Virus record (IMG/VR): IMGVR_UViG_3300014493_000001
Length of the DNA: 46,023 nucleotides
Source of the DNA: a virus
Direction: 5' to 3' (one strand)
Shown: positions 15,714 to 43,650 of the stretch, in pieces
How positions within the stretch are numbered: position 1 is the stretch's first letter
Layout of the letters: each line of letters starts with the position of its first letter
Translations under genes and position numbers: made by a program
Notes under the pieces: generated by a model
Seen by the model: only the letters and a program-made list of their open reading frames with translations
Databases searched by the model: none
What the model was told of the DNA's origin: nothing

Positions 15714-16036
15714 TCCCTTCCTATCTGCTATACGTCGCGGTTGCTCTGCTCTTCGTTCTCGTGTTCGGGGTGCTCTTCTCGTGGGCTCCTCGCAAGAAAA
15801 CAAAACGCGAATCTGCAGGCCCTCACCTGGTGATCGTCGGCAGTGTCGCCATCAACGTCGACAATATGGCTTACATCGACGGCAGCGACTGCCAGAGAGT
15901 CCTGATCTCCGCCGGTAACGAGCTGCTGGACTTCACCGGCCAGGACGCCGCCGACATCCTGCGGTACTTCCATATCCCGGCGCCGGCGGCGCACGCCGCT
16001 CACAAGCCGCACAAGTCCGCTCCCGTTGCCGAATAA
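15710..16036 (+). CDS. Membrane protein (N-terminal TM)
   Basis: N-terminus MIPSYLLYVAVALLFVLVFGVLF. Confidence 0.5.
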   Translation: MIPSYLLYVAVALLFVLVFGVLFSWAPRKKTKRESAGPHLVIVGSVAINVDNMAYIDGSDCQRVLISAGNELLDFTGQDAADILRYFHIPAPAAHAAHKPHKSAPVAE

Positions 16037-16040
16037 CCCC
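16028..16040 (+). promoter_or_regulatory. GCCGAATAACCCC box (copy a of six)
   Basis: Shared motif G[GC]CGAAT[AT]ACC, located 42 nt upstream of GTG 16083. Confidence 0.45.
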
Positions 16041-16082
16041 ACGGACAGCCATGGGAGCCCGTGCCCTTCAAGGAATGGTGTT

Positions 16083-16868
16083 GTGAAAACTATAAGCGAC
16101 GGCGCAAGATGTGCTTCGCTTGTCCCCGCCGCGCTGATTCTCTGCGCGATCGCGATCTCAGCGGCCCTCTGCTGGTTCATCCTCTGTCTGGCGACGACAG
16201 TAAACCAAGTGCCGCACCAGATGACGGCCATTCGGCAAGCCACCCTGCAGCAACTGACGACGCTTGAGGCCGACTCGCTCAAGCTGATCGATAAACAAGC
16301 CAGCGGGATTCGGCAGGACGCGAGCAAACAGATCACGGGCATCCGCACGGATGTTATGACCCAGCTCAGCACCACTGTGGACGTCTTCAACGCTCGTACC
16401 CTGGAAGCGCTCGGCAAGCTCGATCCGGCCCAAAAGGATCTCGACAAGCTCACTAATTCGACAGTGCGCGATCTGGACAGCGCGCGCATGGACCTCGATG
16501 GCATACAGATGCAGTTACGCCCCACGCTACAGAACCTGGCCACGGCCACAGGGAAGGCCTCAGACATCGCCACGCACATCGACGATGCTTTACCGCCGTT
16601 CACGGACTGCGCATATCTAGACGACTCGGGCAGCCCCATAGGCGGCAACCCGGATTGCGTGTTCAACCGCTACCAGGGTGCGAGCAAGGCTTTCGAAAAC
16701 ACCATGATCGCCATCGGCAAGGCGGCGCCCGGGGTGAGCACCTCGGCGGAGGGCATTTCGCAATCGGTGGCGAAAGAGGCCGCCTCACTGACTAAACCCC
16801 AAACATTCTGGCAAGGCTTCAAAAGCTGGCTGCTGATTATCAGCCGGTGCATCGGATTCTTTTTGTAA
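16083..16868 (+). CDS. Membrane-anchored coiled-coil protein (lysis-associated?)
   Basis: GTG start with AAGGAA 7 nt upstream. It has an N-terminal TM (LVPAALILCAIAISAALCWFILCL), a long helical region, and a C-terminal hydrophobic tail. Confidence 0.55.
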   Translation: MKTISDGARCASLVPAALILCAIAISAALCWFILCLATTVNQVPHQMTAIRQATLQQLTTLEADSLKLIDKQASGIRQDASKQITGIRTDVMTQLSTTVDVFNARTLEALGKLDPAQKDLDKLTNSTVRDLDSARMDLDGIQMQLRPTLQNLATATGKASDIATHIDDALPPFTDCAYLDDSGSPIGGNPDCVFNRYQGASKAFENTMIAIGKAAPGVSTSAEGISQSVAKEAASLTKPQTFWQGFKSWLLIISRCIGFFL

Positions 16869-16883
16869 AAGGAACAAACACTC

Positions 16884-17225
16884 ATGACGATCACAAACGC
16901 ATTCACCACAGCATGGAAAGACCTCAAGGCCGGCGCCGCCAAGGTCGATTCCTTTCTGAACCAGAACAGCGCCACGATCCAGGGCGCCATCGCTGAAGGC
17001 AGCGCCGTGGCCGTGGCTGCCGGCGTTCCCGCCGCGGCGGTCACTTCGTTCGATTCTCTGGAGGAAGTGGTAATGGCCAAGGTTGCCGCGGCCGCGCAGG
17101 ACACCGCGAACACCTCCAGCCTCACCGCCTTGTTAGGCGATGCCCTGCCGGCGGTGCAGTCGGTCTCCACGCTACTGAAGACGCACCCCACGGTGGCCAC
17201 CGTTACGGCCGCGCTCAAAAGCTAA
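16884..17225 (+). CDS. Ala-rich hypothetical protein
   Basis: 113-aa ORF with SD AAAGGAAC. Confidence 0.5.
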   Translation: MTITNAFTTAWKDLKAGAAKVDSFLNQNSATIQGAIAEGSAVAVAAGVPAAAVTSFDSLEEVVMAKVAAAAQDTANTSSLTALLGDALPAVQSVSTLLKTHPTVATVTAALKS

Positions 17226-17229
17226 ATTT

Positions 17230-17421
17230 ATGTCCGGCTTCATGCTCACCATCGCCGCGTGCCTCGAGCGTGAGGCCGGATACTGCCTGATCTCGCTCGC
17301 GGTGATCAGCGCCGGCGTGCGCTTTATGGACCCATCGCAACGGGCACAGGTGGGGCACGACCTGGTCGTTTTCGGAATGGGAGTGCTCGCCAGGTCGATG
17401 GGAGCCAATAAACCAACATGA
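17230..17421 (+). CDS. Holin-like small membrane protein
   Basis: 63 aa with two or three hydrophobic segments. It lies immediately upstream of the endolysin and overlaps it. Confidence 0.45.
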   Translation: MSGFMLTIAACLEREAGYCLISLAVISAGVRFMDPSQRAQVGHDLVVFGMGVLARSMGANKPT

Positions 17422-17861
17422 GAACCTCGCCGGCCGGCCGCGCCCTGATCCAAGCGGCTGAAAGCTGCAAACTCGAAGCGTATCCCGACCCCGGCGTAGG
17501 GTGGAAGCTGCCGACCATCGGCTGGGGGCACACCGGCCCCGACGTAGTCCGCGGGCTGAAGATCGGCCAGGCAATCGCGGATGAGCTCTTCGATAGCGAT
17601 GTGCTGGCCAAGGAGGGCCTGGTCCTGGCGGCAGTCCACCGCGCGCCTCTCACTCAAGGGCAGTTCGACGCCCTGGTGAGTTTCGCATACAACTGCGCGG
17701 GATGGCAGAATTCGACCCTGGTTCGGATGGTCAATGAAGGCAACTTCACGGCGGCGGCCGATGAGTTCCCGAAGTGGTGCCATGCCGATGGCCGAGTACT
17801 GCCTGGCCTCGTTACCAGGCGCGCTGCAGAGCGGGCCATGTTCCTCGGGGAGGCAGCGTGA
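17418..17861 (+). CDS. Endolysin, GH24 (T4/lambda-type) lysozyme
   Basis: LIQAAESCKLEAYPDPGVGWKLPTIGWGHTG and QGQFDALVSFAYNCAG. Confidence 0.85.
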   Translation: MRTSPAGRALIQAAESCKLEAYPDPGVGWKLPTIGWGHTGPDVVRGLKIGQAIADELFDSDVLAKEGLVLAAVHRAPLTQGQFDALVSFAYNCAGWQNSTLVRMVNEGNFTAAADEFPKWCHADGRVLPGLVTRRAAERAMFLGEAA

Positions 17862-19499: not shown

Positions 19500-20413
19500 T
19501 GCCGAGACCTACACGAAGAGCGCCCGATCCGGCGCAGGCCGCCAACGAGAAAGTACTCGCCGATCGCCAGGCGCGACTCGACGCACAGATGAAAGAAATC
19601 CCGGACCTGGGACTCGGCCTGAAGGACGAAGGCCCCAAGGACGCTAACGAGTTCTTTGCGGGGCTCGACACGTGGGACAAACAGGCATTCGGCAACCCGG
19701 CGACTACGACCGTACGGTGGGTCTACGGCCCAAGTCCGTTGATCGACGGCTGCCCACACATGCTTGCGCTGGTAGAGCGCGAGGGATTGGAAGCGACCGC
19801 GGAACTCTTCCGCAAGACGATCCTGCTCAAGCAGCATGAGGCAGTCGGCGACGAGATCCTCCGCCGCGGCATTTTCCACGGCATCAAACGCTTCGGCGTG
19901 GAGAAAGTCGCGCAGGCCTTCGCCGATCAGATCCTCCAGATCCCGCGCAAGCAAGTGGAGTACGAGACCGGCCCGGAGGAATTCGGAGACCCGCTCTTGC
20001 TGGGCGGCAACGTCCTCCGCGAGGTGGTGATGAAGCACGGCAACCGTCCGGGCATGAGCTACCGCTTTATGTCGGAGCGGTGTATCGCAGTCCTGGGCAT
20101 GCGCGGGTACACCCTGGTGAAAGACGAAAAAGGCGAGCTCGCCAAGGCCGGCACTCTCCTGCTGGCCGAGATCCCGGCGGCGATCGCGGCGGGGCGCGCG
20201 CGCCACTACCGCGACCAATCGCAGCAGCTGGTGAGGGACGCGGAAGACGAGTACATGGCGAAGACCGAGCAGCTCCTCGCCTCTGCGGGGCGCGTGGGCG
20301 CGGGTTCGAGACCCTTGCGCGCCAATGAAGTGATCCACGGCAACGCCAGCGAGAGACAGGAACTGGTGGGCGCGGATCTCTCGATGGGCATCCACTTTTC
20401 CGACAAGCCGTAA
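19499..20413 (+). CDS. Head-module protein of unknown function
   Basis: 304-aa ORF with a TAATG overlap to the upstream gene. Confidence 0.6.
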   Translation: MPRPTRRAPDPAQAANEKVLADRQARLDAQMKEIPDLGLGLKDEGPKDANEFFAGLDTWDKQAFGNPATTTVRWVYGPSPLIDGCPHMLALVEREGLEATAELFRKTILLKQHEAVGDEILRRGIFHGIKRFGVEKVAQAFADQILQIPRKQVEYETGPEEFGDPLLLGGNVLREVVMKHGNRPGMSYRFMSERCIAVLGMRGYTLVKDEKGELAKAGTLLLAEIPAAIAAGRARHYRDQSQQLVRDAEDEYMAKTEQLLASAGRVGAGSRPLRANEVIHGNASERQELVGADLSMGIHFSDKP

Positions 20414-20443
20414 AAAGTTTCCTCCTGTTGGGCGAATAACCAC
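20411..20443 (+). promoter_or_regulatory. Sigma-28-type promoter candidate for the capsid genes (box copy b)
   Basis: TAAAAAGTTT (20411..20420), 10 nt, then GGCGAATAACCAC (20431..20443). Compare the E. coli FliA consensus TAAAGTTT-N11-GCCGATAA. GGGGGGA SD and GTG 20466 lie downstream. Confidence 0.55.
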
Positions 20444-20465
20444 TCAGCAGGGGGGACTTTTCTAA

Positions 20466-21038
20466 GTGGCAAATCCTAACAACCCGTTCGGCTTCCGGCC
20501 GATCAGTCGTTTCGGCGGCGCGCCGTTCAGTTGCACGGAATACGGCAAGCCCGCAACCGACACGCATACGCTCTTCGCTTTCGACATCGTCCAGAAAGTC
20601 ACCGGCGCGGTCGCGATCCCCGAGTCTCCTATCGGGTACAACGTCCCGACCTGCCAGACCGGATACAACGGCACGCCGGGGACTACGCTCTGGCTGGGGG
20701 CTGCGCTCAACTACGGCCTACTCTCGACTCTCACCGTGCACATGGTGACCGATGAGCAGGATGTCATCTACATGGCGATGTGCGACGCCACCAATCCGAT
20801 GACGACTGCCTCGTACATCGGCAAAAACGCCAACATCAATATCGCTTACAACACGGGGAGCCTGTCGACCAAACAGTCGGGCATGACCGTGAACACCACC
20901 GGCATTGCGACCACCGCGACCCTCGATCTGAGGTTGACGCGCGTGTCGATGATCACGCCGAACCTGGAAGGCACCAACGCGATTGTCGAGTGCCTGATCA
21001 ACAAGCACCAGTTCGCTCAGGGTTCGGTGGGCGTCTAG
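20466..21038 (+). CDS. Capsid decoration/cement-like protein
   Basis: 190 aa, Thr/Asn/Gly-rich and beta-rich, directly upstream of the major capsid gene. The functional call rests on position. Confidence 0.5.
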   Translation: MANPNNPFGFRPISRFGGAPFSCTEYGKPATDTHTLFAFDIVQKVTGAVAIPESPIGYNVPTCQTGYNGTPGTTLWLGAALNYGLLSTLTVHMVTDEQDVIYMAMCDATNPMTTASYIGKNANINIAYNTGSLSTKQSGMTVNTTGIATTATLDLRLTRVSMITPNLEGTNAIVECLINKHQFAQGSVGV

Positions 21039-21110
21039 TAGCAGAGGTTTTGAGAGGGCGGCAGCCGGCCAGAGAGCAGGCGCCGCCCGAAAGTTTCGGA
21101 GGGGCTTTAG

Positions 21111-22043
21111 ATGTTTATCAGAACGTTATTCCCGGACCTGTTCCTGCAGAGCATGCTCCCGGCGATCGACGAAGTTGTCATGACGAAGTACTCCCGCTTC
21201 CCCGACGAGTTCGTCGACGTTTTCCGCATGGAGTCCAGCTCGCGCTCCATCGAGCAGACCACGGAAGTCACGGGCTTCGGGCAGTTCGCGCTCATCCCGG
21301 AAAACGACACCACGCGCTACGACGACGCGTTGCCAGGGTTCAACAAGACCTACGTCCATGCGCAGTACGGCCTGGGCTTCAAGATGTCGAAAGTGTCCCT
21401 GGACGACGACAAGTTTGGCGTGACGCGCAAGCTCGCGACCGAACTCGGGCGCTCGGCCAAGGAAACCAAGGAAGTCACCGCGGCCAACGTGTTCAATTCG
21501 GGCTTCTCCTACGACACCGGAACTACCAACGGACCGGACGGCCAGCCCCTGTTCTCCACCGCCCACCCGCTCATCGGCGGCGGAACGCAGACCAACAAGC
21601 TCTCTTATGCCACCGATCCCGACGTCACCAGCATTCAGTTGGCGTTGACGGATATGCGGCAGACGGTCGATCACCGCGGCAAGCGGCTGCGGATCCCCTC
21701 GAAGAAAGCCATCTTTCCGCCCACTCTGGAATTCGTGGGAGCGGAACTGTTGGGCGGTTCGGACCGCGCCGACACGGCCAACCGCACCATCAACGCTTTC
21801 CGGCACCGCTCGGGCATGCCCAGCTTCGACTCCTGGATGGTGTGGGACTATTTGACCGACCCGCACGCCTGGTTCCTCGAGGGCGAGAAGTCGGACACCG
21901 AGCTGCGCTTCTACGAGCGCGAGGCCTTCCACACCGTGCACGACATCGATTTCGATTCGCGTTCGGTCAAGACGGCCGGCTGGATGCGCTTCAGCGTGGG
22001 CTTTAACGGCTTCTACGGCATTTACGGAGTCCCCAGCCAATAA
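21111..22043 (+). CDS. Major capsid protein (HK97-fold, Mu gpT-like family)
   Basis: 310 aa with SD GGAGGGG. Motifs PLFSTAHPLIGGGTQTN, LRIPSKKAIFPPTLEFVGAELL and DPHAWFL. The size and pattern are typical of this family. Confidence 0.8.
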   Translation: MFIRTLFPDLFLQSMLPAIDEVVMTKYSRFPDEFVDVFRMESSSRSIEQTTEVTGFGQFALIPENDTTRYDDALPGFNKTYVHAQYGLGFKMSKVSLDDDKFGVTRKLATELGRSAKETKEVTAANVFNSGFSYDTGTTNGPDGQPLFSTAHPLIGGGTQTNKLSYATDPDVTSIQLALTDMRQTVDHRGKRLRIPSKKAIFPPTLEFVGAELLGGSDRADTANRTINAFRHRSGMPSFDSWMVWDYLTDPHAWFLEGEKSDTELRFYEREAFHTVHDIDFDSRSVKTAGWMRFSVGFNGFYGIYGVPSQ

Positions 22044-22072
22044 GGGCCAGGGGCAGCCGCTAAGGAGAATCC

Positions 22073-22600
22073 ATGGCTCTCATTCCTCAGAAAACGCGCC
22101 CCGCGTCGACCAACGTCACGCGGGAGCGCATCGGACCCACGCGGGTACCGAAAGACCGGTCCATCCTGGCGATGTGCGCGCCCAACCCCGCCAACAAGAG
22201 CACCAACACTTCGAACAACCAGGTGCAGATGGTCGACTGCATTCTTACCGCGACCTACTCGCCAGCGGCGGCCCCCACCCAGTTAACCGGCATCACCACG
22301 CACTCGCTCGCCATGTGGAATATCACGGCAAGCGAGGCCGGCCACGCGCCCGACTACTTCCCCGGCGACATCTGGGAATTCCTCAGCCAGGACAACGTGA
22401 ACGGCGCCACCACCGACGCATTGACCAACTCCGGGCTGCTCTGCCTGGGCATCTATGTCCTCGGGACCGGCCCATACGATCTCGGGATGCTGCTGTACAA
22501 CAACACCGCAGGCACTCTATCGACGCCGGCGGCGTACCTCCCTACGCTGTTCGTTTCGCGCTTCACGAACCTGTGCAGCGATCCGAATCCGATTTATTAA
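22073..22600 (+). CDS. Virion structural protein (unknown)
   Basis: 175-aa ORF with SD AAGGAG. Confidence 0.6.
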   Translation: MALIPQKTRPASTNVTRERIGPTRVPKDRSILAMCAPNPANKSTNTSNNQVQMVDCILTATYSPAAAPTQLTGITTHSLAMWNITASEAGHAPDYFPGDIWEFLSQDNVNGATTDALTNSGLLCLGIYVLGTGPYDLGMLLYNNTAGTLSTPAAYLPTLFVSRFTNLCSDPNPIY

Positions 22601-22609
22601 GGGGGTTGA

Positions 22610-23053
22610 ATGCCTTTCGACCTCAGAATTCAGCAACGGAATGTCTTCCCCTCGACGGCCTGCACGGCCGCCGGGGGGCCCTACTTCTCCGTCACTCACA
22701 AATCGACCGTGGGGAAGGGCATCCGGCTGTACATCACCACTTCGCTGGTGACTCTCTCGACCGCTCCGGACTCGATATCTCTTTGCGCGATGCCTCCGAA
22801 CGGCGGCGCCGCGGTGCCGATCGCCACGCTCTCCGGTCCTACTGCCGGCGGCAACCTGACCGTGGCGGGAACTTACGTCTTCGATTTCTATCCCGGCTCC
22901 ACCACTTCGCAGGTGCCTCCTGGCACCGGTAGCGCGGTGACGTTCGCCGGCGGCATTGTGGCCATCTCGATTCCGTTGCAATGGCAGATCAAGATCGCGC
23001 TCGGTACCGGCGGCGCGGCCACCATCGCGATCGACGCCGAGATTCTGCCCTAA
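22610..23053 (+). CDS. Virion structural protein (unknown)
   Basis: 147-aa ORF with SD AAGGGGG. It is followed by the palindrome GCCGCCCATGGGCGGC (23061..23076). Confidence 0.6.
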   Translation: MPFDLRIQQRNVFPSTACTAAGGPYFSVTHKSTVGKGIRLYITTSLVTLSTAPDSISLCAMPPNGGAAVPIATLSGPTAGGNLTVAGTYVFDFYPGSTTSQVPPGTGSAVTFAGGIVAISIPLQWQIKIALGTGGAATIAIDAEILP

Positions 23054-23108
23054 TGGAACGGCCGCCCATGGGCGGCTAGTCCCTGGGCGCGCCGGCGAAA
23101 AGCCAGGT

Positions 23109-24419
23109 ATGAGGATTCGCTCCGCACCCCTCCTGCTCCTAGCGATCGCCGCCGGCGCATTCGGCCAGGCCATCAGTAACCCCGGCTCGCCCAGCAGCAA
23201 TCCGTTTCAGACCAATGTCTCGACCGCTTACCTGTACTTCAACAAGGTGCACTACGCCGGCGCCTGGTCGAGCTCGACGACTTACAACTCCCAGGACCTG
23301 GCACTCTATAGCGGGGCGAGTTACATCAGCCTGCAGGCGCTCAACACGGGCAACAATCCGGCGGCGGCGCCGCTCTGGTGGATCGCGCTGCCGGGCAGCG
23401 GCGGCTCGGGCAACGTGGTCTTGACGACGGGATCGGGAGCGCCCTCGGCGAACTGTACGGCGCCATCGACGTCGAACCTGGCTGTCTATCTAGACAGCAC
23501 CAACAACGATGAGTGGTGGTGCTATGCCACCAACGCCTGGAAGAAAACTCTCAGCGTTACGGGCAGCGGGCCTTTCCAGATGACGGGGGAGGTTGGCTCT
23601 CTGCCGAGTACGCCGGCATCGGGGAGCGTCAGTTGTGTCTTCCTGGCATCGTCTGCCCTGGTGTGCGTCGATGCGAGCGGCAACGACTGGACGATGTTGC
23701 CCCCCGGCGCGACGGCCATCGCCAACGCCACCACGGGCAATGCGGGCACGGCCACCGCCCTGGCATCGGCGCCATCGCTTTGCAGCACGGGCAACGCGCC
23801 CACCGGCGTGCTGGCAAATGGCGATGCCACCGGATGCGCGGCGATCGGCGGCGGTGGAGGCGGATCGTCGCTGAAGGGAACCATCTCCCTCCCTACGAGC
23901 CTGCTGGCTAGCGGGGCCTGCCTGGCGGCGACGCCAGTTACCGGCACCGGCATCGCCACTTCCGACACGATCGCCATCAGCTTCAGCGCGGACCCAACAT
24001 CCACCACTGGCTATATCGCCCCGTCGATGTTGTCGTTCATCCCTTTTCCTACAGCCAACACCGTCAACGTGAAGGTGTGCAACAACACCTCGGCAGCCAT
24101 CACTCCCGGGGCCATCACGCTCAATTGGGCAGTGGGCGCGCGAACGGTCGCCAGCGGCACGGCAACGCTCGGGACTTCTGCAATCGCGAGCGGTGCGTGC
24201 GCGGCCCCGGTTACCGTCGCCAACGCGGCCATCGCTACCACCAACGTCATCTCAGCCACTTTCAATGGAGACCCGACATCCAGCGCGGGCTACCTGCCGG
24301 GAGCGATGTTGTCGATCATTTCATACCCCACAGCCGGGAACGCGAACTTTAAGGTCTGCAACAACACGGCCAGCTCGATCACCCCCAGCGCGGCCACCCT
24401 GAATTGGAGTGCCCAATGA
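23109..24419 (+). CDS. Sec-signal-bearing fibre-like protein with two tandem 84-aa domains
   Basis: MRIRSAPLLLLAIAAGAFGQA signal peptide. Fibre-type motif YSGASYISLQALNTGNNPAAAPLWW. The repeated domains lie at 23877..24128 and 24156..24407. Confidence 0.65.
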   Translation: MRIRSAPLLLLAIAAGAFGQAISNPGSPSSNPFQTNVSTAYLYFNKVHYAGAWSSSTTYNSQDLALYSGASYISLQALNTGNNPAAAPLWWIALPGSGGSGNVVLTTGSGAPSANCTAPSTSNLAVYLDSTNNDEWWCYATNAWKKTLSVTGSGPFQMTGEVGSLPSTPASGSVSCVFLASSALVCVDASGNDWTMLPPGATAIANATTGNAGTATALASAPSLCSTGNAPTGVLANGDATGCAAIGGGGGGSSLKGTISLPTSLLASGACLAATPVTGTGIATSDTIAISFSADPTSTTGYIAPSMLSFIPFPTANTVNVKVCNNTSAAITPGAITLNWAVGARTVASGTATLGTSAIASGACAAPVTVANAAIATTNVISATFNGDPTSSAGYLPGAMLSIISYPTAGNANFKVCNNTASSITPSAATLNWSAQ

Positions 24420-25144
24420 TGAAGCGTCTAGTCCTCACAGCAGCTTGCCTGGCCTTGGCAGCCGGCGCACAGATTTATCCAGGACCTGGAATGCCTATGG
24501 GGGGCAGCAGCATTGCCCTCGTCTCTCACGGGTACATAAACAGTGGCGGGGCGATTGTTACCCCAGGCTGGGTCACCATCAATTCCACCGGTGCGAACTT
24601 CATTGTAGTTCTGGAGACCCTTTACCAGAACGCTACCGTGGCCCCATCAGACAGCAACTCGAACACTTGGGCGCAATGCGGGTCCGACTACATCAGCATC
24701 GCCAATAACAACTTCCACATCGGGATATGGTATGCGGCCCACGCAACAGTGGGCACCAGTCATGGTATTGGCTTAAGCGGTCCGACATCGTATTCCAGCA
24801 TCTACGTGGCGTCGTTCAGCGGCTTAACTTCCTCTCCCTGCACGGCTGCAACCAACGGAACTACAGGTGGAGGGTCACCAGCGGCAACGTTGCAGCCCGG
24901 TTCTATCACGCCGGTATCCAACGGATCATTGATAGTCACCGGGGATTTGGCGTATAACGGGTCTGGGACAGGGTCGTCCACCATCAACTCGGGATTCACA
25001 GTAACAGATTCCGGCAGCACCAACACTGGGTTCGCATATGGGGGTCTTGCATATCTTGTGCAAGGAACGGGAGCGGCAATCAACCCTACTTGGTCTCAGG
25101 CAGATGCCGAGTTATTGGGGGCAATTCAGGTGGCCTTTAAATGA
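24416..25144 (+). CDS. Sec-signal-bearing beta-rich protein (possible receptor-binding/lectin-like), lower GC than its neighbours
   Basis: MMKRLVLTAACLALAAGAQ signal peptide. My hand counts of 60-nt blocks gave 50-60% GC, against 67-70% in the flanking genes. Confidence 0.65.
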   Translation: MMKRLVLTAACLALAAGAQIYPGPGMPMGGSSIALVSHGYINSGGAIVTPGWVTINSTGANFIVVLETLYQNATVAPSDSNSNTWAQCGSDYISIANNNFHIGIWYAAHATVGTSHGIGLSGPTSYSSIYVASFSGLTSSPCTAATNGTTGGGSPAATLQPGSITPVSNGSLIVTGDLAYNGSGTGSSTINSGFTVTDSGSTNTGFAYGGLAYLVQGTGAAINPTWSQADAELLGAIQVAFK

Positions 25145-25248
25145 AGCGGGTTATCTTATTGCTAGTGTCGGTGTGCGAAGCTGATCGTCCAATCCGCATC
25201 GAACGGCTCCGCGGTGGGGACGGTGGGATTTTGAGTTTCAAGCCATAA
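25141..25248 (+). CDS. Possible 35-aa mini-ORF
   Basis: ATGA overlap with the upstream stop. Hydrophobic N-terminus MKRVILLLVSVC. Too short to be confident. Confidence 0.2.
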   Translation: MKRVILLLVSVCEADRPIRIERLRGGDGGILSFKP

Positions 25249-25257
25249 ATGACGCCT

Positions 25258-25270
25258 GGCGAATAACCCT
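25258..25270 (+). promoter_or_regulatory. GGCGAATAACCCT box (copy c)
   Basis: Ends 2 nt before GTG 25273. Confidence 0.45.
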
Positions 25271-25272
25271 AC

Positions 25273-26250
25273 GTGACGTGGGGACAACTCAGATTTCAGC
25301 TACAGACCGGCGCGCCGGGCGTCTCGGCCGACCTCCTCGACGAGTTTCTCAACTCGCGCTACGAGCAACTCCTCGAGGCCACCAACTGGCAGGGCCTGCG
25401 GTATCCCGCCACGATCCAGACAACCGCGGCGTACCAGTCGACGACAGACACGGTGAACCTCACGGTGGGCTCGACAGCGGTGACGGGAGTCGGCACTGCA
25501 TGGACCTCGGCGAACACCAACGGCATGAACTTCTACCGGCCCGGGGACACGGTGATCTACACCTTCACCTGGGTGTCGGGAACCAGCGGGACGCTCGACC
25601 GGCCCTATGAGGGCGTCGGCACCGACGCACCCGGGACGCTCTACACCGCGGCTGCCTATGTCTTCATGCAGGACGTCTACCAGCTGCCCTCGGACGTACG
25701 AAGCGTCGAGTACGCCCTGGATCCGATCACGGGCTATGCGCTCGGCAAGATGAGCTCGGCGGAAATGGACGCTTCTTGCGGACAGCGCACCCTGGTGCAG
25801 GACCCGACTACCTGGGCGATCGTCGACGACACCAACGAGTCGAGTCCACCGGTAGCGCACCAGATCCGACTCTTTCCTCCTCCGCTCTACGCCCGCGGGA
25901 TCAAGATCGAGTACATCCACACCGCCAGCGGATTCGACGGCGGCAACACCAGCGCATCGCCCCTGCCGTGGATCTCCCAGAGTTCGCTCCTGGCGGGCTG
26001 CCGTTGCTCGATTGAGACCTACCTCGCCTCGCAGAGCGAAGGGCAGGCATTTGCGGCGCATCTCAATGCAGCCAAGACCTACGCCGCGGAGTGGGCGGTC
26101 GAGATCAACCGGCTGCTCCTGGTGGAGTTCACCCAGAAACGCAAGAAAGTGCCGATGCAGATGGCCTCCAGGTTCACCCGGCATCGCGTGTTCCGCGTCT
26201 GCCGCGGCTTCCGGAATGCGTGGGGACCCGGAGCCGGCGGGCCGAACTAG
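25273..26250 (+). CDS. Structural protein, paralog family member 1
   Basis: 325 aa. It shares an architecture with 26253..26969 and 28277..28966: Y/F-x-LP ... W ... P ... lYP/FPPP ... Y. Confidence 0.6.
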   Translation: MTWGQLRFQLQTGAPGVSADLLDEFLNSRYEQLLEATNWQGLRYPATIQTTAAYQSTTDTVNLTVGSTAVTGVGTAWTSANTNGMNFYRPGDTVIYTFTWVSGTSGTLDRPYEGVGTDAPGTLYTAAAYVFMQDVYQLPSDVRSVEYALDPITGYALGKMSSAEMDASCGQRTLVQDPTTWAIVDDTNESSPPVAHQIRLFPPPLYARGIKIEYIHTASGFDGGNTSASPLPWISQSSLLAGCRCSIETYLASQSEGQAFAAHLNAAKTYAAEWAVEINRLLLVEFTQKRKKVPMQMASRFTRHRVFRVCRGFRNAWGPGAGGPN

Positions 26251-26252
26251 CC

Positions 26253-26969
26253 ATGACGCTCGCGACGATGTACGGCCTGGTGTCGCAACGCCTCAACGAA
26301 GGCGCCAGCGGGCCCGTGTTTTATCCCAAGAGCGAAATGATCGCCGCGCTGAATGAGGCGGAGCGCTTCTTCGTCCTGCTCACGCTGGGCCTGGAAAACA
26401 CCGCGCCATGGACCATCTCAGCCAATACGACGTTCTTTCACATGCTGACGGCTTTCCCCGACTGGATCGCGCCGCTCCGGATCTCGAACCTGGACGGCTC
26501 GCGCGTAAGACCCTCACGGCTGGAGGATCTATGCTCGCTCAACAGCGGGTGGATCGCCTCGCCGCAGATCGGCAACCCGCAGCGCTATTGCGTCATCGGG
26601 GGAGACCTGCTGGCGATCTATGGGCAGCCGACCGTCAATACGACAGTGAACGTCACCTACGCGCAGGCGCCCGTCCCTCTGGTGCAGGACACCGACGTGC
26701 CGCAGTCGCCGGCCGAGTACCATCCGCGCCTGGTCGACTATGGCGTCTATCGCATGCGGCAAGTGGAAGGCGGGCAGGAGTTTCAGAAGGGGCTGCCGTT
26801 CTTCGCCAGCTTCTTCGAAGGCGCCCAGCACTACGCGGCATACGTCCGGGCGCGGAATATCGGATCCAGGTACGACAAAGTGCCGTTTGAGCTAGAGCGT
26901 TTCGATTTATCGCAGCTGCTGAAGCTGCGCAAAGATCTATTGCCGGGCAACAAACCGGCGGAGGTGTGA
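26253..26969 (+). CDS. Structural protein, paralog family member 2
   Basis: 238 aa, with ATG 3 nt after the upstream stop. Confidence 0.6.
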   Translation: MTLATMYGLVSQRLNEGASGPVFYPKSEMIAALNEAERFFVLLTLGLENTAPWTISANTTFFHMLTAFPDWIAPLRISNLDGSRVRPSRLEDLCSLNSGWIASPQIGNPQRYCVIGGDLLAIYGQPTVNTTVNVTYAQAPVPLVQDTDVPQSPAEYHPRLVDYGVYRMRQVEGGQEFQKGLPFFASFFEGAQHYAAYVRARNIGSRYDKVPFELERFDLSQLLKLRKDLLPGNKPAEV

Positions 26970-26972
26970 GTC

Positions 26973-28268: not shown

Positions 28269-28276
28269 AGAGTCCA

Positions 28277-29781: not shown

Positions 29782-29787
29782 AGCTCG

Positions 29788-29816
29788 AGCATCGGCGACT
29801 TTGCCGAGAAAGTCAA
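29788..29816 (-). promoter_or_regulatory. Sigma-70-like promoter giving a leaderless Dam transcript
   Basis: On the minus strand: TTGACT (29816..29811), a 17-nt spacer, GATGCT (29793..29788), then 6 nt to ATG 29781. No SD is present. Confidence 0.4.
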
Positions 29817-29919
29817 GGCCGCCGAAAGACCCTTCGCTTCGGGCGGCGTCTCGATCGCGATCGCGTAGGAGATCAATCGCCAAGTGGACGCTGCGCAACA
29901 GCCTCCGGAGACCGCCCCC

Positions 29920-29932
29920 GGCGAATAACCCC
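29920..29932 (+). promoter_or_regulatory. GGCGAATAACCCC box (copy d)
   Basis: Ends 3 nt before GTG 29936, where + strand transcription has to restart after the antisense Dam gene. Confidence 0.5.
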
Positions 29933-29935
29933 GCA

Positions 29936-35028: not shown

Positions 35029-35045
35029 GGGGCGAAAAGCCCGGT

Positions 35046-37582: not shown

Positions 37583-37595
37583 GTCGAATTACCCC
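37583..37595 (+). promoter_or_regulatory. GTCGAATTACCCC box (copy e)
   Basis: Ends 4 nt before ATG 37600. Confidence 0.4.
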
Positions 37596-37599: not shown

Positions 37600-40500
37600 A
37601 TGGGGCCCGACACTTTACCGGCGGATTTCTTCGATCAACAACAGCAGGTCGCGAGCTCCGCACCTCCGGATACTCTGCCGGCGGACTTCGACTTTACGGC
37701 CAAACCTGCAACTCCAACTCCTGGGGCGAAGACGACAATCGGGGCAGCTCCGCCCGCACAAGCACCGCTCAAACCTTCTCAGCAACTCCCACAGCCCAAC
37801 CAGGTCGTACAGGATGCCACCCAGCACGCCAGGGTGATCGCAGAGGCAGCCACGAGGCCGCCGGACCAGACCATCGGGGCATATCACCCCGGAGTCTTAG
37901 AGCGCCTCTGGGCGCCGATCCGCGAGGGTGCCTTCGGGCGCGCTACTCACATGAGCAGCGAAACCGCCGGCGCGCGCGAGGAAGATCCCAGCAATCCCCT
38001 GCTGAAGCTCGATGCCGCGGCTCCGGACGTGGGGCCCGGTGTAACCAAGGCGGCGCTGCAATTCGGCAGCGGATTGACGACGCCGGAGAATCTCCTGCTG
38101 ATGGCAGGTACCGGAGGATTGGGGGCTCTGGAGAAGCAACTCGGCAAGAGCCTGGTAACACGGCTGGTATCGGCCGGCTTTTCGGGGCAGATGTTAAAAA
38201 GTGCCTACGACCAGGTGCCAGCGTTGCGCGAGCACTGGAACAAACAGGACTGGCCCAACGTTCGTGCAGACTTAACTCGTATCACGCTGTCGGGCGGTAT
38301 GGCAGGACTTGCGGCGACGCACGCGGCGAAAGGACCCAAGGAGACCACCAATGTTCCCACCGAAGAAAAGCCCGGCCAGAGCGCCGAGCATGAAGCGGCC
38401 AGCCCCCAAGCGCGGCCAATCGCAGCCGCCGGGCAGCCTGCTCGACCGGCTGAACGCGGCAACCAACCGGCCGCGGTCGATGCCGGTACCGCAGGCCATC
38501 CCGCCGCGCAAACGGAGGTAACCCATGCGGGTGACGACGCTCGTAATCAGGGCGCACCAGGCCCAGCTCCGCGAGGTAGAGCAACTGGTGGGACGCCACC
38601 GGCTGTACGAGAAGGGGACGGACAGCAGCCGATACCTGGACTACCGCGACCGGGCGGAGGCGGACCTGGCGATGGTGAACCTCAATCTCATCCCGGGAGT
38701 GTCGGTGAGAATACTCGGAGAGTGACGGGGTCGGCGGACCTGCCTCTCACCAAGCAAGGAGAGAGGCACGCCGCCAAGATCGACGTCGATCCGGACACGC
38801 AAGTCTTCCACGCGCCGAATCGGCGGAGCGAACAGACCGGGCAGATCGCCAGCGATCGGGCCAAGCCGGCCGCATGGCTGGAACCGTGGAGGCTGGGAGA
38901 GCACGAAGGCAAGCCCCTCCCAGGTGCGCAGCCGATCATCGACGATTTGATGCGCAACCCCGACAAGAAACCGGGGGTCAGTCCGCACTCAGGAGAGGCG
39001 GGGGAATCGTTCCGGACCGCGCGCGATCGCCTGATTACCGGGGCGGCACGGCAGCGCGCCGGCATCGAACCGGGCGATAAGGTTTTGAATGTGACGTCGG
39101 GGCGTGCGATCGCGATCGCCGGCGGACATCCGGAGCAGGAAATCGCGACGGGTCAATTATACCAATGGACTCCGCAGGGCATGAAAGCGGTGGAGGCCGT
39201 CGAGCCGGGTAAGCAGCATTTCATCACGCACGAAGATACGATTTGGAACCCGAGCCCTGATAGTAGTGGCGACGGAAAAGGGCGAGGGATTGCACCCCGT
39301 GTCGTCGTGGGTGATGCTTCAATGGGGCCGCCGCCACCGCAGGAAAGTGTAACACCGCGCGGGCCGGGGTTCATCGGCAATATTCCCACGTCCGAGATCC
39401 ACGCCGACCCCGTGCGATTCCAATTCAAACAGAACGTAGGCCAGGGCGGCGCCGGCGAGACTTTCCGGGATGTGACGAAGTGGGACCCGGAGATGGGCGG
39501 CACGGTCTCGGTGTGGCTCGATCCGGCGGACGGGAAGACGTACGTGGTCAATGGGCATCACCGCCTCGAGATGGCGCAACGCCTGGGCGTTCCCGAGCTG
39601 AGCGTGCGGTACCTGAAAGCCGCGACGGCGCAGGAGGCGCGGCTCAAGGGCGCCATTATTAATATCGCCGAGGCCTCGCAGACGGCCAGCTCGATCGACG
39701 CGGCGAAGGTGTTTCGCGACTCCGGCATGACCGAGGAAGAGATCGCGGCCGATGGCCGGATCGCCATGAAAGGAAAGCTCGCGAAAGAAGGATTCGCGCT
39801 CTCGAAACTAGCGCAGCCCATCTTCGACGATGTAACTGCGGGCGAGCTCACGCCAGCGCGCGGCGCCGTAATTGGTGCGGGAGTTCCCAACCACGCGGAC
39901 CAGATTGCCTTGTACGACATCGTCCGCAAGATGGAGCGCGGAGGTAAGCGGCTTACAAACGATCAGCTCGAAGAGTTGATCCGGATGAACAGCCGGGCGC
40001 CGAAGATCACAGAGAGCACGGCGGACCAGGCGCAGGCCTCCATGTTCGGCGAAGAGGAGATGACGCGCTCACTGCTGCCGGAGAAGGCCATCGTTTCCGA
40101 CTATGTGCGGTCGCAGCTGAAAGCGGAGAGGAAACTTTTCGGGGCGGTGTCTTCCCAAGCGGCCGCGGAGCGTTTAGGGGAGGCCGGTAACGTTATCCAA
40201 ACCAGTACCAATGCGGCCAAAGCCGAGGGTGCAAATCAGGGCATTTCGCTGTACGATAAGCTGAGCACTTCAGCCGGACCGATCGATGGCATTCTCGACC
40301 GTGCAGCGCAGCGACTTGCCAATGGAGAAAACGCCAATGACGCCAAAGAGCAAGCCTACCGAGAGACCCGAGACTATCTCGCGCAGCAGATCCGTCAACT
40401 CTCCGGAATTCCGGAGGGAGATGCTCGACGAGTTAGTGGAAGCCTACCAGCAGGGGACAGTGAAGCTCGCGCCGGGCAACACGATCAAGCCCCGGTAGTC

Positions 40501-43341
40501 GAACCGCAGCCCGCGCCGGCCGCGGAATCCCCTAAGTCCGACCTCGAGCGCCAGGTCGAAGCCGCGCGCGCAGAGCATGACAAACTCGTCGAGGCAGCCA
40601 AAGCCCGCCTCAAAGCCAGAAAGAAGCGACTCGAGCGCGGCAGTTTCTCACAGCGGGACTCGGAAGCCGGCCAGGGACTCTTCAGCAAGCAGGATTTCGA
40701 CGACATGGTGCTGGTGGCGGGGGACTACATCCACCGCGCCGGCGATGCCTTCGTGGAATATGTCAAGGCCATGGTGGCAGAGTACGGCGACACTGTGCGC
40801 CCGCTACTGCGGAAAGCATACCTTGCGGCCAAGACGCGGGCGCAGGCGCAGGACGATCTTTTCGCGGAGCGGCCGGCGGCGCCGGAGCCCGGCGGATTCA
40901 CTCCGGAGGCGCTGCTGCACGATCGGCTTACCGCTCAGATGAAATCCGGCGGGCGGGTCAAGGCTTCGAAGTTGAAGGCGGCGCAGTCGCGGAGTCTGTT
41001 CGACGAGGAAGGGCCGGAGAGCGGCAACCTGTTCGCAGCCGAGGATCTGCCGCGGGCGGAGCGGGAGAGCTTGAGTCTGTTCGCAGGCGACGAGCGCGGG
41101 AGTTTTTCGTTCAAGGCGAAAAGCGGCGGCGGCGTGGCGGACTCATTTCTGCGGGCGGATCTCAAGGCGGTAAAGGAACTGAAGGCGAAGAGGGACGCGG
41201 GCCTGGCCGCGGTGAAGAAGGCGGCCGCCGATCCCGCGGAGAAGGCTTTCGGGCAGCGGCTGGTCGAATACTACACGGGCGAGCGTGACATGTGGGTCAC
41301 GCGCGTCAACCAGGTGCTCGATCGGCTCAAGGCCCTGGTGCCGGGAGCGGTGGAGCGGCAGGGCATCGCCATCTACCGTGATTTCAAGACACGGCCCGGC
41401 GAGCTGCAGCAGTGGCTCAACGGTACCCACGTCAATTTGCGGACGCTCAGCGGCGCCGATCTAAAGACTGCGATGGATCGGATCCAGGAGTTGCGGCCGG
41501 CAATCCTGCAGGCGCTGCACCCCACGAAACGTATGCTCGATGCGGATAAGGTGCTGACCACGATCGCTGAGGCGTCATTCGCCGAGGGGCATCGGTTGGG
41601 ATTCATCCCTCGAGAATTGAACTCGGAGCGGTACTTCACCCACCTGTTATTTCCGAAGGGCGAAGCGCCGGTGCCGGTGCCGATCGGAGAGCGAATGGGA
41701 AAGGCGCTCGGCGGCAAGATCGGTCGGGAGTACGCGTTCTCGGCGAGGCGCGAATATCCCACCGTGCTCGATGCGATCGCGGACAATGTGAAGCCGAAGA
41801 CCCTCGACCCGTTCGTAGCGTTTGCGATTCACGGCGACGCTTTCGCCACGGCGCGCGCGACTCACTTACTGATCGAGGCCCTGCGGCGTCCGGGAGTCGG
41901 AGGGTACGCCAACGGCGCCGCTAAATGGTTCGCCGGTTCGGACCGCCGGATTCCGGAGGGCTGGGTCGCGGCCGCGCGCCATTCTCGCTTGTTCTCACAG
42001 GATGGCGAGTATGTAGACCCAGTGACGGGAGAAAAGGTACTCGCGGAGCAGCAGCTCTATGTCCCCAAAGTTATCGACCAGGCTCTGCGGCCGATCACGG
42101 ATCCGGATTACATGAACCGGTTGCCGGGCTTCGCGCAATTGCGACACACGCAGGCATATCTGAAGGCCGTACAGTTGGGTCTCTCGTTCTTCCACGTGAC
42201 CACCGAGAACTATATGGCTCTGGCCAACATGGGGCCAAAGGGTTGGTGGCAAGGCCTACGTGCCGATCGCGATAGCGCCGACTTCCTGAAGGCGGAGCGG
42301 GAGTTCATCGGGCACGGCGGTACCACCTCGGTGCTCGGGCGCACGGTGGAAGCGTACAAAGCGCTCGAGCCCGGGCTGATTCCGACCTGGGGGGATATTT
42401 GGAAGAGCGCTCCGGTGGTGCGCGAGGTCGACCATCTCGCCGGCAAAATCACGGAATTCACTTTCGGCAAGATCCAGCGTCAGTTCAAGGTCACCGATTA
42501 CGGACTCCATAAGGCGGCCTGGCTGGCGGACCACCCGAACGCGACGCAGATGGAGACGCGGGCGGCCATGGGCTCGATCAGTAAAGAGATTAACGCGGTC
42601 TACGGTGGGCTGAACTGGGAGAATCTTGGGATCAACCACATGAGCGTCGAGGTCACGCGCGCGCTGTTATTGGCGCCCGATTGGACGATCAGTAACGTGT
42701 TCAATCTCAAGTACTCGTTCGAACGCGGTACAGAGGCTGGGAAGCTCGCGCGTATGTTCTGGATCCGCCAACTGGTGGGCGGGATCGCTCTGACGGAGGC
42801 CACTAGCCTAATGCTGGGCGGGAGACTGTCGAAGGATCCCACGCAGGTGTACATGGGGCACGACAAGGACGGAAAAGACATCTACCAGAACGTGTTTTTC
42901 AAGGGCGCCGGGGGCGACGTCGTCAACTTTGTGCACGACACGCTCGACTACGGCGGAGTGCAGGGGCCGATCCGGTTCATGGCTGGGAAGGGCGCCCCGT
43001 TCATCCGGACCGGGATGGAGCTGGCGAACAACGAGGACTTCCTGCACCGCGAGCTGATTCCGAAGGGCATGAATCCGGTGGCGTCGACGGCGCGCGGACT
43101 CTGGGAAGCGGCTAAAGGCGTCGCGCCCACTCCGCTCACTCTGACGAACTGGAAGGACATGCTGATCGGTCCGAAAGCGGATCAGTACAGTGTGCCGGAG
43201 TTTCTGACGGTTCCCTTCGCTGGAACGGCGCCGCGGCACGTCCCCTCAGGTGGCATGCGGATGAGACACGGCGAGCTCGAAGAGTACGAGCCGCCGGCGA
43301 ATCGGTCGATCTGGGATGAAATCGTTTCGGGCAAGCGCTAG
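37600..43341 (+). CDS. 1,913-aa polyvalent-type virion protein with a ParB/Srx domain and a degenerate histidine-phosphatase-like domain
   Basis: The ParB-like segment at 39382..39663 reads IPTSEIHADPVRFQFKQ...YVVNGHHRLEMAQRLGVPELSVRYL. The HP-like segment at 38716..39117 reads ADLPLTKQGERHA, FHAPNRRSEQTGQIA, LGEHEGKPL, GEAGESFRTARDRL, VTSGRAIAI. A large conserved-looking C-terminal region follows. Confidence 0.8.
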   Translation: MGPDTLPADFFDQQQQVASSAPPDTLPADFDFTAKPATPTPGAKTTIGAAPPAQAPLKPSQQLPQPNQVVQDATQHARVIAEAATRPPDQTIGAYHPGVLERLWAPIREGAFGRATHMSSETAGAREEDPSNPLLKLDAAAPDVGPGVTKAALQFGSGLTTPENLLLMAGTGGLGALEKQLGKSLVTRLVSAGFSGQMLKSAYDQVPALREHWNKQDWPNVRADLTRITLSGGMAGLAATHAAKGPKETTNVPTEEKPGQSAEHEAASPQARPIAAAGQPARPAERGNQPAAVDAGTAGHPAAQTEVTHAGDDARNQGAPGPAPRGRATGGTPPAVREGDGQQPIPGLPRPGGGGPGDGEPQSHPGSVGENTRRVTGSADLPLTKQGERHAAKIDVDPDTQVFHAPNRRSEQTGQIASDRAKPAAWLEPWRLGEHEGKPLPGAQPIIDDLMRNPDKKPGVSPHSGEAGESFRTARDRLITGAARQRAGIEPGDKVLNVTSGRAIAIAGGHPEQEIATGQLYQWTPQGMKAVEAVEPGKQHFITHEDTIWNPSPDSSGDGKGRGIAPRVVVGDASMGPPPPQESVTPRGPGFIGNIPTSEIHADPVRFQFKQNVGQGGAGETFRDVTKWDPEMGGTVSVWLDPADGKTYVVNGHHRLEMAQRLGVPELSVRYLKAATAQEARLKGAIINIAEASQTASSIDAAKVFRDSGMTEEEIAADGRIAMKGKLAKEGFALSKLAQPIFDDVTAGELTPARGAVIGAGVPNHADQIALYDIVRKMERGGKRLTNDQLEELIRMNSRAPKITESTADQAQASMFGEEEMTRSLLPEKAIVSDYVRSQLKAERKLFGAVSSQAAAERLGEAGNVIQTSTNAAKAEGANQGISLYDKLSTSAGPIDGILDRAAQRLANGENANDAKEQAYRETRDYLAQQIRQLSGIPEGDARRVSGSLPAGDSEARAGQHDQAPVVEPQPAPAAESPKSDLERQVEAARAEHDKLVEAAKARLKARKKRLERGSFSQRDSEAGQGLFSKQDFDDMVLVAGDYIHRAGDAFVEYVKAMVAEYGDTVRPLLRKAYLAAKTRAQAQDDLFAERPAAPEPGGFTPEALLHDRLTAQMKSGGRVKASKLKAAQSRSLFDEEGPESGNLFAAEDLPRAERESLSLFAGDERGSFSFKAKSGGGVADSFLRADLKAVKELKAKRDAGLAAVKKAAADPAEKAFGQRLVEYYTGERDMWVTRVNQVLDRLKALVPGAVERQGIAIYRDFKTRPGELQQWLNGTHVNLRTLSGADLKTAMDRIQELRPAILQALHPTKRMLDADKVLTTIAEASFAEGHRLGFIPRELNSERYFTHLLFPKGEAPVPVPIGERMGKALGGKIGREYAFSARREYPTVLDAIADNVKPKTLDPFVAFAIHGDAFATARATHLLIEALRRPGVGGYANGAAKWFAGSDRRIPEGWVAAARHSRLFSQDGEYVDPVTGEKVLAEQQLYVPKVIDQALRPITDPDYMNRLPGFAQLRHTQAYLKAVQLGLSFFHVTTENYMALANMGPKGWWQGLRADRDSADFLKAEREFIGHGGTTSVLGRTVEAYKALEPGLIPTWGDIWKSAPVVREVDHLAGKITEFTFGKIQRQFKVTDYGLHKAAWLADHPNATQMETRAAMGSISKEINAVYGGLNWENLGINHMSVEVTRALLLAPDWTISNVFNLKYSFERGTEAGKLARMFWIRQLVGGIALTEATSLMLGGRLSKDPTQVYMGHDKDGKDIYQNVFFKGAGGDVVNFVHDTLDYGGVQGPIRFMAGKGAPFIRTGMELANNEDFLHRELIPKGMNPVASTARGLWEAAKGVAPTPLTLTNWKDMLIGPKADQYSVPEFLTVPFAGTAPRHVPSGGMRMRHGELEEYEPPANRSIWDEIVSGKR

Positions 43342-43625
43342 TATTTCCCGCCGTGGGTGATCGCCGAGTTGGCATCCATGCGCGCCTCGCGGATCTTCCG
43401 TATGGCGACGGCGCGGTCGGGGCCTGGTGGGACGTCAGAAATGATCTGGCAGACGGCCTGGGCTAATACCTGGCGTACGCGGCTGCCCGCTTCGATTTGT
43501 TCCGGGGTCCACGCGTGGTAGTCGAAGGCATCGAACACCGCGGCTTCGACGGCTGGAGTGAGTGTTGTTGCGCGCGTGATGTCCACCTTGGGGACGGCAG
43601 GCTCGGAGAGTTGTTGTGGTGTCAT
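43338..43625 (-). CDS. Hypothetical small protein
   Basis: 95-aa ORF. The pattern FDYHAWTPEQ...VPPGPDRAVAIRKIREARMDANSAI recalls a small protein family I have seen in other phages, which is unverified. Confidence 0.6.
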   Translation of the reverse strand: MTPQQLSEPAVPKVDITRATTLTPAVEAAVFDAFDYHAWTPEQIEAGSRVRQVLAQAVCQIISDVPPGPDRAVAIRKIREARMDANSAITHGGKY

Positions 43626-43637
43626 GCCTTCAAGTAT

Positions 43638-43650
43638 GGCGAATTACCAC
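43638..43650 (+). promoter_or_regulatory. GGCGAATTACCAC box (copy f)
   Basis: It lies in the 37-nt gap between a minus-strand gene and ATG 43663. It shares the extension ACTCAG(C)AGGGG with copy b. Confidence 0.5.

Follow-up and report, generated by a model that had tools for sequence, protein, structure and literature searches.

In this article I describe a short repeated DNA box and a sigma factor encoded by the phage, both from virus record IMGVR_UViG_3300014493_000001, a stretch of 46,023 nucleotides (nt) that is called the window throughout, and I discuss what the two together suggest about the expression of late genes in this phage and its relatives. A direct repeat of 123 bp (1-123 and 45901-46023) is shared by the two ends of the window, which therefore represents the complete genome of a tailed phage, circularly closed and with 45,900 unique bases. 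The genes that could be identified are those for TerL, a portal-like protein, a Mu-gpT-type major capsid protein, tail proteins, a lysozyme, a virion protein of 1413 amino acids (aa), a polyvalent protein of 1913 aa and, on the opposite strand, a Dam-like methyltransferase, while a serine recombinase of the resolvase/invertase type (196 aa, 45668 to 358) crosses the junction of the circular genome. The late block on the + strand opens with the gene for a sigma-70-family factor, and a putative small terminase (HTH_8) and TerL come shortly after it. Listed below are the sigma gene and the ten copies of the box, with all distances counted from the first base of the box to the start codon.

9361..10059, + strand: sigma-70-family factor, 232 aa from GTG 9361 (publicly called as 217 aa from ATG 9406)
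15695..15705, + strand: box GCCGAATAGCC, 15 nt before ATG 15710, without a Shine-Dalgarno sequence; the gene opens the lysis region and encodes a 108-aa membrane protein
16028..16038, + strand: box a, GCCGAATAACC, 55 nt before GTG 16083 (261-aa membrane protein)
20431..20441, + strand: box b, GGCGAATAACC, before GTG 20466 (190-aa protein directly upstream of the major capsid gene)
23094..23104, + strand: variant box GGCGAAAAGCC, 15 nt before ATG 23109 (436-aa secreted protein)
25258..25268, + strand: box c, GGCGAATAACC, 15 nt before GTG 25273 (325-aa tail protein)
29920..29930, + strand: box d, GGCGAATAACC, 16 nt before GTG 29936 (1413-aa virion protein)
35031..35041, + strand: variant box GGCGAAAAGCC, 15 nt before ATG 35046 (276-aa protein)
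37583..37593, + strand: box e, GTCGAATTACC, 17 nt before ATG 37600 (1913-aa protein), where an in-frame stop abuts the ATG
43638..43648, + strand: box f, GGCGAATTACC, in a 37-nt gap between divergent genes, before ATG 43663 (64-aa membrane protein, the sole + gene among − strand neighbours)
45652..45662, + strand: variant box GGCGAAAAGCC, 16 nt before ATG 45668 (196-aa serine recombinase)

A first-pass annotation of this DNA had reported six of these copies, and they are indeed there: GNCGAATWACC matches at 16028, 20431, 25258, 29920, 37583 and 43638, each time on the + strand and never on the − strand, where dinucleotide-preserving shuffles lead one to expect a mean of 0.13 matches (maximum 1), and the distances that it gave to the gene starts proved correct when the flanks were checked. 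The set was incomplete, though, as the copy at 15695 and the three GGCGAAAAGCC copies (23094, 35031 and 45652) had been missed. At least ten copies in the window fit the wider consensus G[GTC]CGAA[TA][AT][AG]CC, the pattern GKCGAAWWRCC gives eight matches (all +, 0.5 expected), and a position weight matrix made from relatives only recovers 10/10 of the window copies. At a threshold of at least 11 bits this same matrix yields 16 matches on the + strand and six on the − strand, compared with 3.6 per strand in simulated sequence; its extra matches at 35166, 35967, 41263, 43023 and 44205 fall inside coding sequence and were not counted as boxes, the one at 35166 being conserved as protein sequence in the related locus L039. 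The three GGCGAAAAGCC copies are identical to each other, stand 4-5 nt before their ATGs and are specific to this lineage at sites where relatives carry the canonical box. They belong to the box family because five relatives (L001, L002, L004, L036 and L039) have a canonical GGCGAATWACC-N4-ATG/GTG at the site orthologous to 23094, and the recurrence of the same two substitutions at three sites suggests a selected sub-class of promoter that would differ in strength or timing.

The window genes can be divided by the placement of the box relative to their starts. Seven window genes (15710, 23109, 25273, 29936, 35046, 37600 and 45668) have a box at 15-17 nt, and six of the seven lack a Shine-Dalgarno-like sequence; 18 other + genes of the window have a Shine-Dalgarno and no box, and the three genes with a distant box (16083, 20466 and 43663, behind a, b and f) have a Shine-Dalgarno between the box and the start. 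The starts of genes c and e cannot be moved upstream because an in-frame stop directly precedes the start codon, and gene c offers no room for a Shine-Dalgarno because its open frame begins only two codons upstream. Directly before the start codon there is a pyrimidine in 47 of 71 cases versus 50% in controls, a preference that would fit the usual pyrimidine(−1)/purine(+1) at transcription start sites, and if the start is placed 15 nt after the first G of the box, GNCGA occupies −15 to −11, which is the register of GCCGA in sigma-28 promoters. The leaderless geometry that the first-pass annotation had proposed for the close-spaced copies is what the distances, the register and the missing Shine-Dalgarno sequences of these genes point to. 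It had also placed copies d and f where + strand transcription must restart, which holds for both, f lying in its 37-nt divergent gap and d in a divergent intergenic gap of 154 bp; the latter gap is a correction, since the Dam-like methyltransferase most likely starts at ATG 29781 (MGYPGGK) and not at GTG 30015, so that box d is not inside that gene. Its further remark that b and f share ACTCAG after the box is accurate as well.

Promoters of the sigma-70 type are not above shuffles in the late region (none versus 3.9 expected for 9-28 kb; two, one per strand, versus 2.9 for 28-46 kb), and neither are intrinsic terminators. A reading in which the TAA of the box simply terminates the preceding gene applies to copy a only, as two window copies have TTA and the upstream frames generally end elsewhere.

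The comparison of the window with about 49 related loci, gathered via TerL, the 1413-aa protein and the sigma factor and numbered here with the prefix L, shows the core recurring on the late-gene strand at orthologous gene starts. CGAATWA is followed 6-7 nt on by a start codon that opens a long open reading frame (ORF) in 20/53 cases on the TerL (+) strand as against 1/27 on the other strand; and when the distance from the first G of G[GT]CGAA to the start codon is plotted, there is a peak at 15 nt with 65 matches, compared with roughly 10-25 at the neighbouring in-phase distances and six on the opposite strand. In a curated set with the G[GT]CGAAT core, which admitted only starts close to the 5' end of ORFs with 70 codons or more, there are 62 boxes on the late-gene strand versus four on the other, and 40/62 stand at exactly 15 nt. 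This curated set contains no conserved −35 element, as no position between −55 and −1 reaches an information content of 0.15 bit; an earlier −35 logo, made from all G[GT]CGAA[TAC][TA] matches (343 on the + and 229 on the − strand), had been swamped by matches in coding sequence.

Site by site, where genes b, c, d, f, g and h have orthologs, the box is retained there while the flanks have diverged. At box b the string TGGCGAATAA is invariant amid diverged flanks in the window, L047, L001, L002 and L036, and about 15 relatives have a box and a G-rich Shine-Dalgarno leader at the b ortholog, with the Shine-Dalgarno always between box and start. The orthologs of box c in L040 and L044 read GTCGAATACAA/GTCGAATTGCC at 15-16 nt before the start, and those of box d read GGCGAATTGAC in L039, GGCGAATTCCG in L041, GTCGAATTTAC in L043 and GTCGAACAACG in L044, all 14-16 nt before a conserved MGY N-terminus. 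Similarly, the copy at 15695 is conserved at its ortholog as GCCGAATAACCggacATG in L001 and as GCCGAATAGCCcggcATG in L047/L048, the ortholog of gene 35046 in L044 has GTCGAACAACCgggcATG, and GGCGAAATACCcagagggg stands before the f ortholog in L039. In more distant relatives the box is GTCGAAT and occurs in many copies, with at least nine in 17.8 kb of L017, and even L049, whose sigma factor is only 28-30% identical, still has GTCGAATA[AT]C[CT] boxes. With a sigma factor of 42% identity or more to that of the window, the second position of the box is mostly G (11/16 boxes), and with one below 40% it is mostly T, so a tracking of sigma clade by box position 2 is suggestive, although it is confounded by phylogeny. 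The lineage L017/L018/L044 (IMGVR_UViG_3300035696_000080) deserves separate mention, as at least 12 GTCGAA(T/C/A)-N8-ATG/GTG boxes occur there in about 35 kb, one of them directly before TerL, and nearly every late gene in this lineage seems to have a box of its own.

The candidate reader of the box is the sigma factor at the head of the block. It has two domains, sigma-2 and sigma-4 (Pfam Sigma70_r2, E=5.5e-9), and scores 55.2 bits against NCBIfam TIGR02937, whose cut-off is 42.9, while the next-best models are FliA/WhiG, far below their cut-offs. FliA (9wsm_F, E=1e-5) and WhiG are also its best sequence matches in the PDB. The AlphaFold2 model (predicted local distance difference test, pLDDT, 85) consists of two helical domains with a short disordered linker between them and finds only sigma factors in Foldseek, and an alignment of 28 homologs displays a conserved region 2, a short variable linker and the helix-turn-helix of region 4. 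Among the first 38 related loci, a sigma homolog adjoins TerL in 33. In regions 2.3-2.4 the phage protein reads YCYFRVRGAIID where FliA reads YAGIRIRGAMLD, so the phage sigma keeps Y, R, R and D in register with Y76, R80, R82 and D87 of the Pseudomonas aeruginosa sigma-28. In the latter these residues contact −11A, −12G and −13C of the promoter, with −11A flipped onto Y76, R80 touching −12G and D87 near −13C/−12G, on a fliC element placed as (−15)GCCGATAA(−8); the extended −10 contact is supplied by R97 of sigma-3, which contacts the −15/−14 guanines (PMC12784957). As an aside on the sigma gene itself, a box-like sequence GGCGAAAGGCC is present at 9388-9398, 18 nt before ATG 9406, the publicly called start of the gene, and is not conserved in the closest relative L047; by analogy with what has been proposed for phage 7-11/phiEco32, it could provide positive autoregulation.

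Taken together, I consider that the boxes are probably −10-only late promoters which the phage sigma reads, so that seven genes would have leaderless mRNAs and three would have short leaders with a Shine-Dalgarno, and I would put the probability of this at about 0.7. The phage sigma would be made from the head of the + block, bind the host core RNA polymerase and direct it to G(G/T/C)CGAA(T/A)(A/T)(A/G)CC, with the box at about −15 to −5, GNC acting as an extended −10 and G-12/A-11 as the point where melting nucleates, as in sigma-28 promoters, and with no need for a specific −35. Transcription would then begin about 15 nt downstream of the box's first G, a point which at the seven close-spaced genes is the start codon itself or 1-2 nt before it, and the resulting leaderless mRNAs would need no Shine-Dalgarno; genes 16083, 20466 and 43663 would instead receive a leader of 10-40 nt with a G-rich Shine-Dalgarno. 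At box b the predicted start is A 20446, for a 20-nt leader with GGGGGG before GTG 20466, and at box f it is A 43653, for a 10-nt leader with GAGGGG before ATG 43663, the shared ACTCAG being in both cases the presumed discriminator and start site, followed by the Shine-Dalgarno. That the phage sigma rather than some other factor recognizes the box, where transcription starts and that the timing is late are points that I infer from these arrangements.

Several observations weigh against this reading, which rests on DNA and protein sequence throughout. The protein has a sigma-4 domain, yet a conserved −35 was not found; a k-mer test of the −35 zone did return a weak enrichment of GAAA/AAAT/AAGT (GAAA in 16/71 versus 41/588). 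By family cut-off the protein is not FliA, as it scores 39.2 bits against TIGR02479, where 189.6 would be needed, and the residue-level analogy with sigma-28 covers only part of the box because the phage sigma is without sigma-3 and hence without R97. The counts from the related loci are not independent events, as these loci share a phylogeny. Coverage is uneven too: in the window, TerL and the portal gene are without a clear box, so not every late gene is served, and one box precedes the serine recombinase, which is not an obvious late gene. Finally, the first-pass annotation was right overall that the copies lie at gene boundaries before late genes, but copy a is doubtful; its TAA is the stop codon of the ORF 15710-16036, the closest relative has GACGAAATAAC at this place, and it is the weakest and least certain member of the set, and poorly conserved.

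The proposed switch has precedents in late or middle promoters of other phages. Late promoters of phage T4, which are read by gp55, consist of a single −10-type element, TATAAATA, without a −35. Phage phiEco32, with gp36 and its element TAATGTATA, and phage 7-11 likewise combine a phage sigma factor with a single −10-type element and no −35 (PMC4331800). The window resembles these three in having a diverged sigma-70-family protein of its own and a single element of the 8-12 bp class repeated on the coding strand before structural genes (ten + copies here, 62 versus four family-wide, no conserved −35), and it differs from them in the consensus, in the host phylum (probably Acidobacteriota here), in that most copies abut the start codon and in that nothing points to co-activators of the kind of T4 gp33/gp45 or to an anti-sigma. 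The abutting copies have parallels of their own in the middle and late promoters of Thermus phages, where a −10-type element likewise ends shortly before the start codon and there is no Shine-Dalgarno. In high-GC bacteria the promoters of leaderless genes carry TANNNT about 12 nt before the start codon, and in Acidobacteria 9.7-19.4% of genes are predicted to be leaderless (PMC3160421). Here too a −10-type element ends 6-7 nt before an ATG or GTG, and six of the seven genes have no Shine-Dalgarno; however, because the hexamer at −12 to −7 is GAATAA, GAATTA or GAAAAG and not TANNNT, the box does not look like one for a housekeeping sigma. The extracytoplasmic function (ECF, group 4) sigmas share the two-domain sigma-2/sigma-4 build, and the phage sigma passes the broad TIGR02937 model, but ECF promoters rely on a −35 (AAC, GGAAC-like) and a short −10 (CGT), neither of which is found with the CGAAT core here, and the region 2.4 signature RxRGAxxD of the phage sigma is of the group-3 (FliA/SigD) type.

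A further comparison is with sigma-28 (FliA/WhiG/SigD), and it also raises the question of whether the host does the reading. GNCGA matches GCCGATAA including the extended −10 GC and is followed by A/T-rich bases; were the start codon also the transcription start, it would share the −15 to −11 register. Region 2.3-2.4 of the phage sigma keeps Y, R, R and D at the positions that contact −11A, −12G and −13C. The resemblance to a sigma-28 −10 with one extra A, noted in the first-pass annotation, holds for the sequence, on that condition for the register, and for region 2 of the phage sigma; it does not extend to the −35, sigma-3 or the family cut-offs. The box has GAATAA instead of GATAA; the TAAA(GTTT) expected about 11 nt upstream is not conserved; the phage sigma is without sigma-3 and far below the FliA/WhiG cut-offs; and the genes served are phage late, not flagellar, genes. 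The agreement thus breaks down on three counts, the −35, the score relative to the sigma family cut-off and the sigma-3 domain, and for this reason the box does not belong to the sigma-28 promoter family. A host sigma, be it the flagellar FliA or another alternative sigma, could nevertheless be imagined to read the box while the phage sigma serves other promoters, and the match of the 5' half of the box to the sigma-28 extended −10/−10 (GCCGA) in sequence and register would favor this, as would TAAAAAGTTT located 10 nt upstream at promoter b, which resembles the sigma-28 −35 TAAAGTTT. However, promoter b is the only one with such a string, which there overlaps the upstream stop codon, a −35 is not generally conserved, and the 3' half of the box departs from GCCGATAA by the inserted A. 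In addition, the phage sigma gene accompanies the box throughout the family, the base at box position 2 varies with the sigma clade, and no other repeated motif was seen that might be the target of the phage sigma. Recognition by the host factor is less economical because the phage sigma is co-conserved with the box, and I regard it as unlikely.

Explanations without a sigma factor fare less well. Were the box a signal in the RNA that replaces the Shine-Dalgarno for one class of phage genes, then the fixed 15-nt spacing, the lack of a Shine-Dalgarno at precisely those genes and the position of the box in the place of a Shine-Dalgarno (−15 to −5) would all be accounted for; but for boxes a, b and f and about 15 b orthologs the distance to the start is 22-55 nt and takes in an ordinary G-rich Shine-Dalgarno, and because these leadered copies have a Shine-Dalgarno of their own, the box works independently of its spacing to the start codon. 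The box is also absent from the 16 listed − strand genes of the window, and Rfam matches nothing in the window, so I find a role in translation initiation improbable. Nor is GGCGAAUAACC complementary to CCUCC, which I take to be the anti-Shine-Dalgarno of the usual 16S rRNA 3' tail. The small HTH_8 protein encoded beside the sigma gene (10385-10690) brings to mind a different possibility, that the box is bound by a phage activator or repressor and is not a sigma element, and short conserved boxes can indeed be operators. An activator site, though, normally lies upstream of the core promoter, and there is no room for a separate −10 and start site because the gene starts 4-6 nt after the box; the box is asymmetric, occurs once per site and is strictly strand-specific, and the HTH_8 protein sits in the position expected of the small terminase, which together leave this explanation quite improbable. 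I attach the least credence of all to an RNA hairpin, formed by the box with ACCCC...GGGG, that would regulate translation or mark a processing site. Small foldings of this sort are possible at c, d and e, and the pairing that the first-pass annotation saw at d and e does exist, but the fold energies are within those of shuffles (z = 0.0 to −1.3, with −0.6 to −1.3 for the ACCCC/GGGG pairings), the GGG behind the start codon encodes the Gly of the conserved MGY N-terminus, and relatives keep the box without the ACCCC, so this part of the earlier description is not supported. Moreover, if transcription did start at the start codon, the 5' arm of the hairpin would not be in the RNA at all.

As for the phage that carries these putative sigma-dependent promoters, the INPHARED phage collection contains no near-identical DNA for 20000-32000 of the window, and TerL matches known phages at less than 27% identity only, leaving no close relative among sequenced phages. 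A TerL profile search located relatives in eight GTDB genomes (L031-L038); six of these are metagenome-assembled genomes (MAGs) of Bryobacterales/Bryobacteraceae, and from this share the host is probably a member of the Bryobacterales (Acidobacteriota). The six include sites within contigs of 3.04 Mb (L037) and 114 kb (L035), while the remaining loci are binned one to Verrucomicrobiota and one to Streptosporangiaceae. Relatives of TerL in MAG contigs suggest that the family is probably temperate and infects Acidobacteriota. Neither Rfam at gathering thresholds nor a tRNA scan returned a match anywhere in the window.

A number of side observations on individual genes may be of use to others. 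The region 15710-17861 is a probable lysis cassette, in which two small membrane proteins (15710 and 16083) behind boxes are followed by a phage lysozyme (17418-17861) that has the same position in L047. In the region 21040-21110, the major capsid gene is without a box and has a strong GGAGGGG Shine-Dalgarno, 5' of which there is a GC-rich inverted repeat, gggcggcagccggcc...ggcgccgccc, kept in L001 and L002; situated between the b gene and the capsid gene, it may form a hairpin that stabilizes the RNA or acts in attenuation. The Dam-like D12 methyltransferase (28960-29781, −) is the only antisense gene within the late block and converges on the + strand gene 28250-28966, whose end it overlaps. 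In the 1913-aa protein (37600-43341), residues 371-507 are histidine-phosphatase-like, another stretch is ParB-like and a further one corresponds to the C-terminal part of phrog_21, whose annotation is portal protein; the whole looks like a polyvalent protein that is possibly injected. Just after the recombinase, the sequence GTCGAATTCTC at 730-740 stands exactly 15 nt before ATG 745 of a 64-codon ORF (745-939), making it possible that this is an eleventh box and the ORF an unannotated small gene.

What, then, does this add? The general picture of temporal regulation in phages is unchanged and the kind of switch was already known; what is new are the consensus, the probable host phylum, the family-wide, presumably leaderless layout with one box per gene and the GGCGAAAAGCC sub-class, and a full-text literature search for the motif strings returned primers and unrelated sequences only and thus no account of the motif. 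Gene regulation has hardly been described for phages of the Acidobacteriota, which are among the most abundant phyla in soil, and a promoter consensus with its cognate sigma would enable researchers to annotate late operons and the true (leaderless) start codons in metagenomic phages. Such a compact, orthogonal pair of sigma and promoter is also a candidate genetic tool for Acidobacteria, and it would be a natural example of sigma-28-like −10 recognition without sigma-3 or a −35, bearing on how group-3 sigmas evolved toward two-domain forms. More speculatively, and with clearly less confidence than I have in the promoters themselves, a large family of uncultured Acidobacteriota phages might run its whole late programme on a sigma-28 relative that has dispensed with sigma-3 and needs only GNCGAAT, with nearly every late gene that is without a Shine-Dalgarno having its own promoter and a leaderless mRNA. 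If true, the window-specific GGCGAAAAGCC copies would constitute a second class of promoter with a different strength or timing, and late expression in these phages would not depend on Shine-Dalgarno-based initiation and might also withstand host shut-off.

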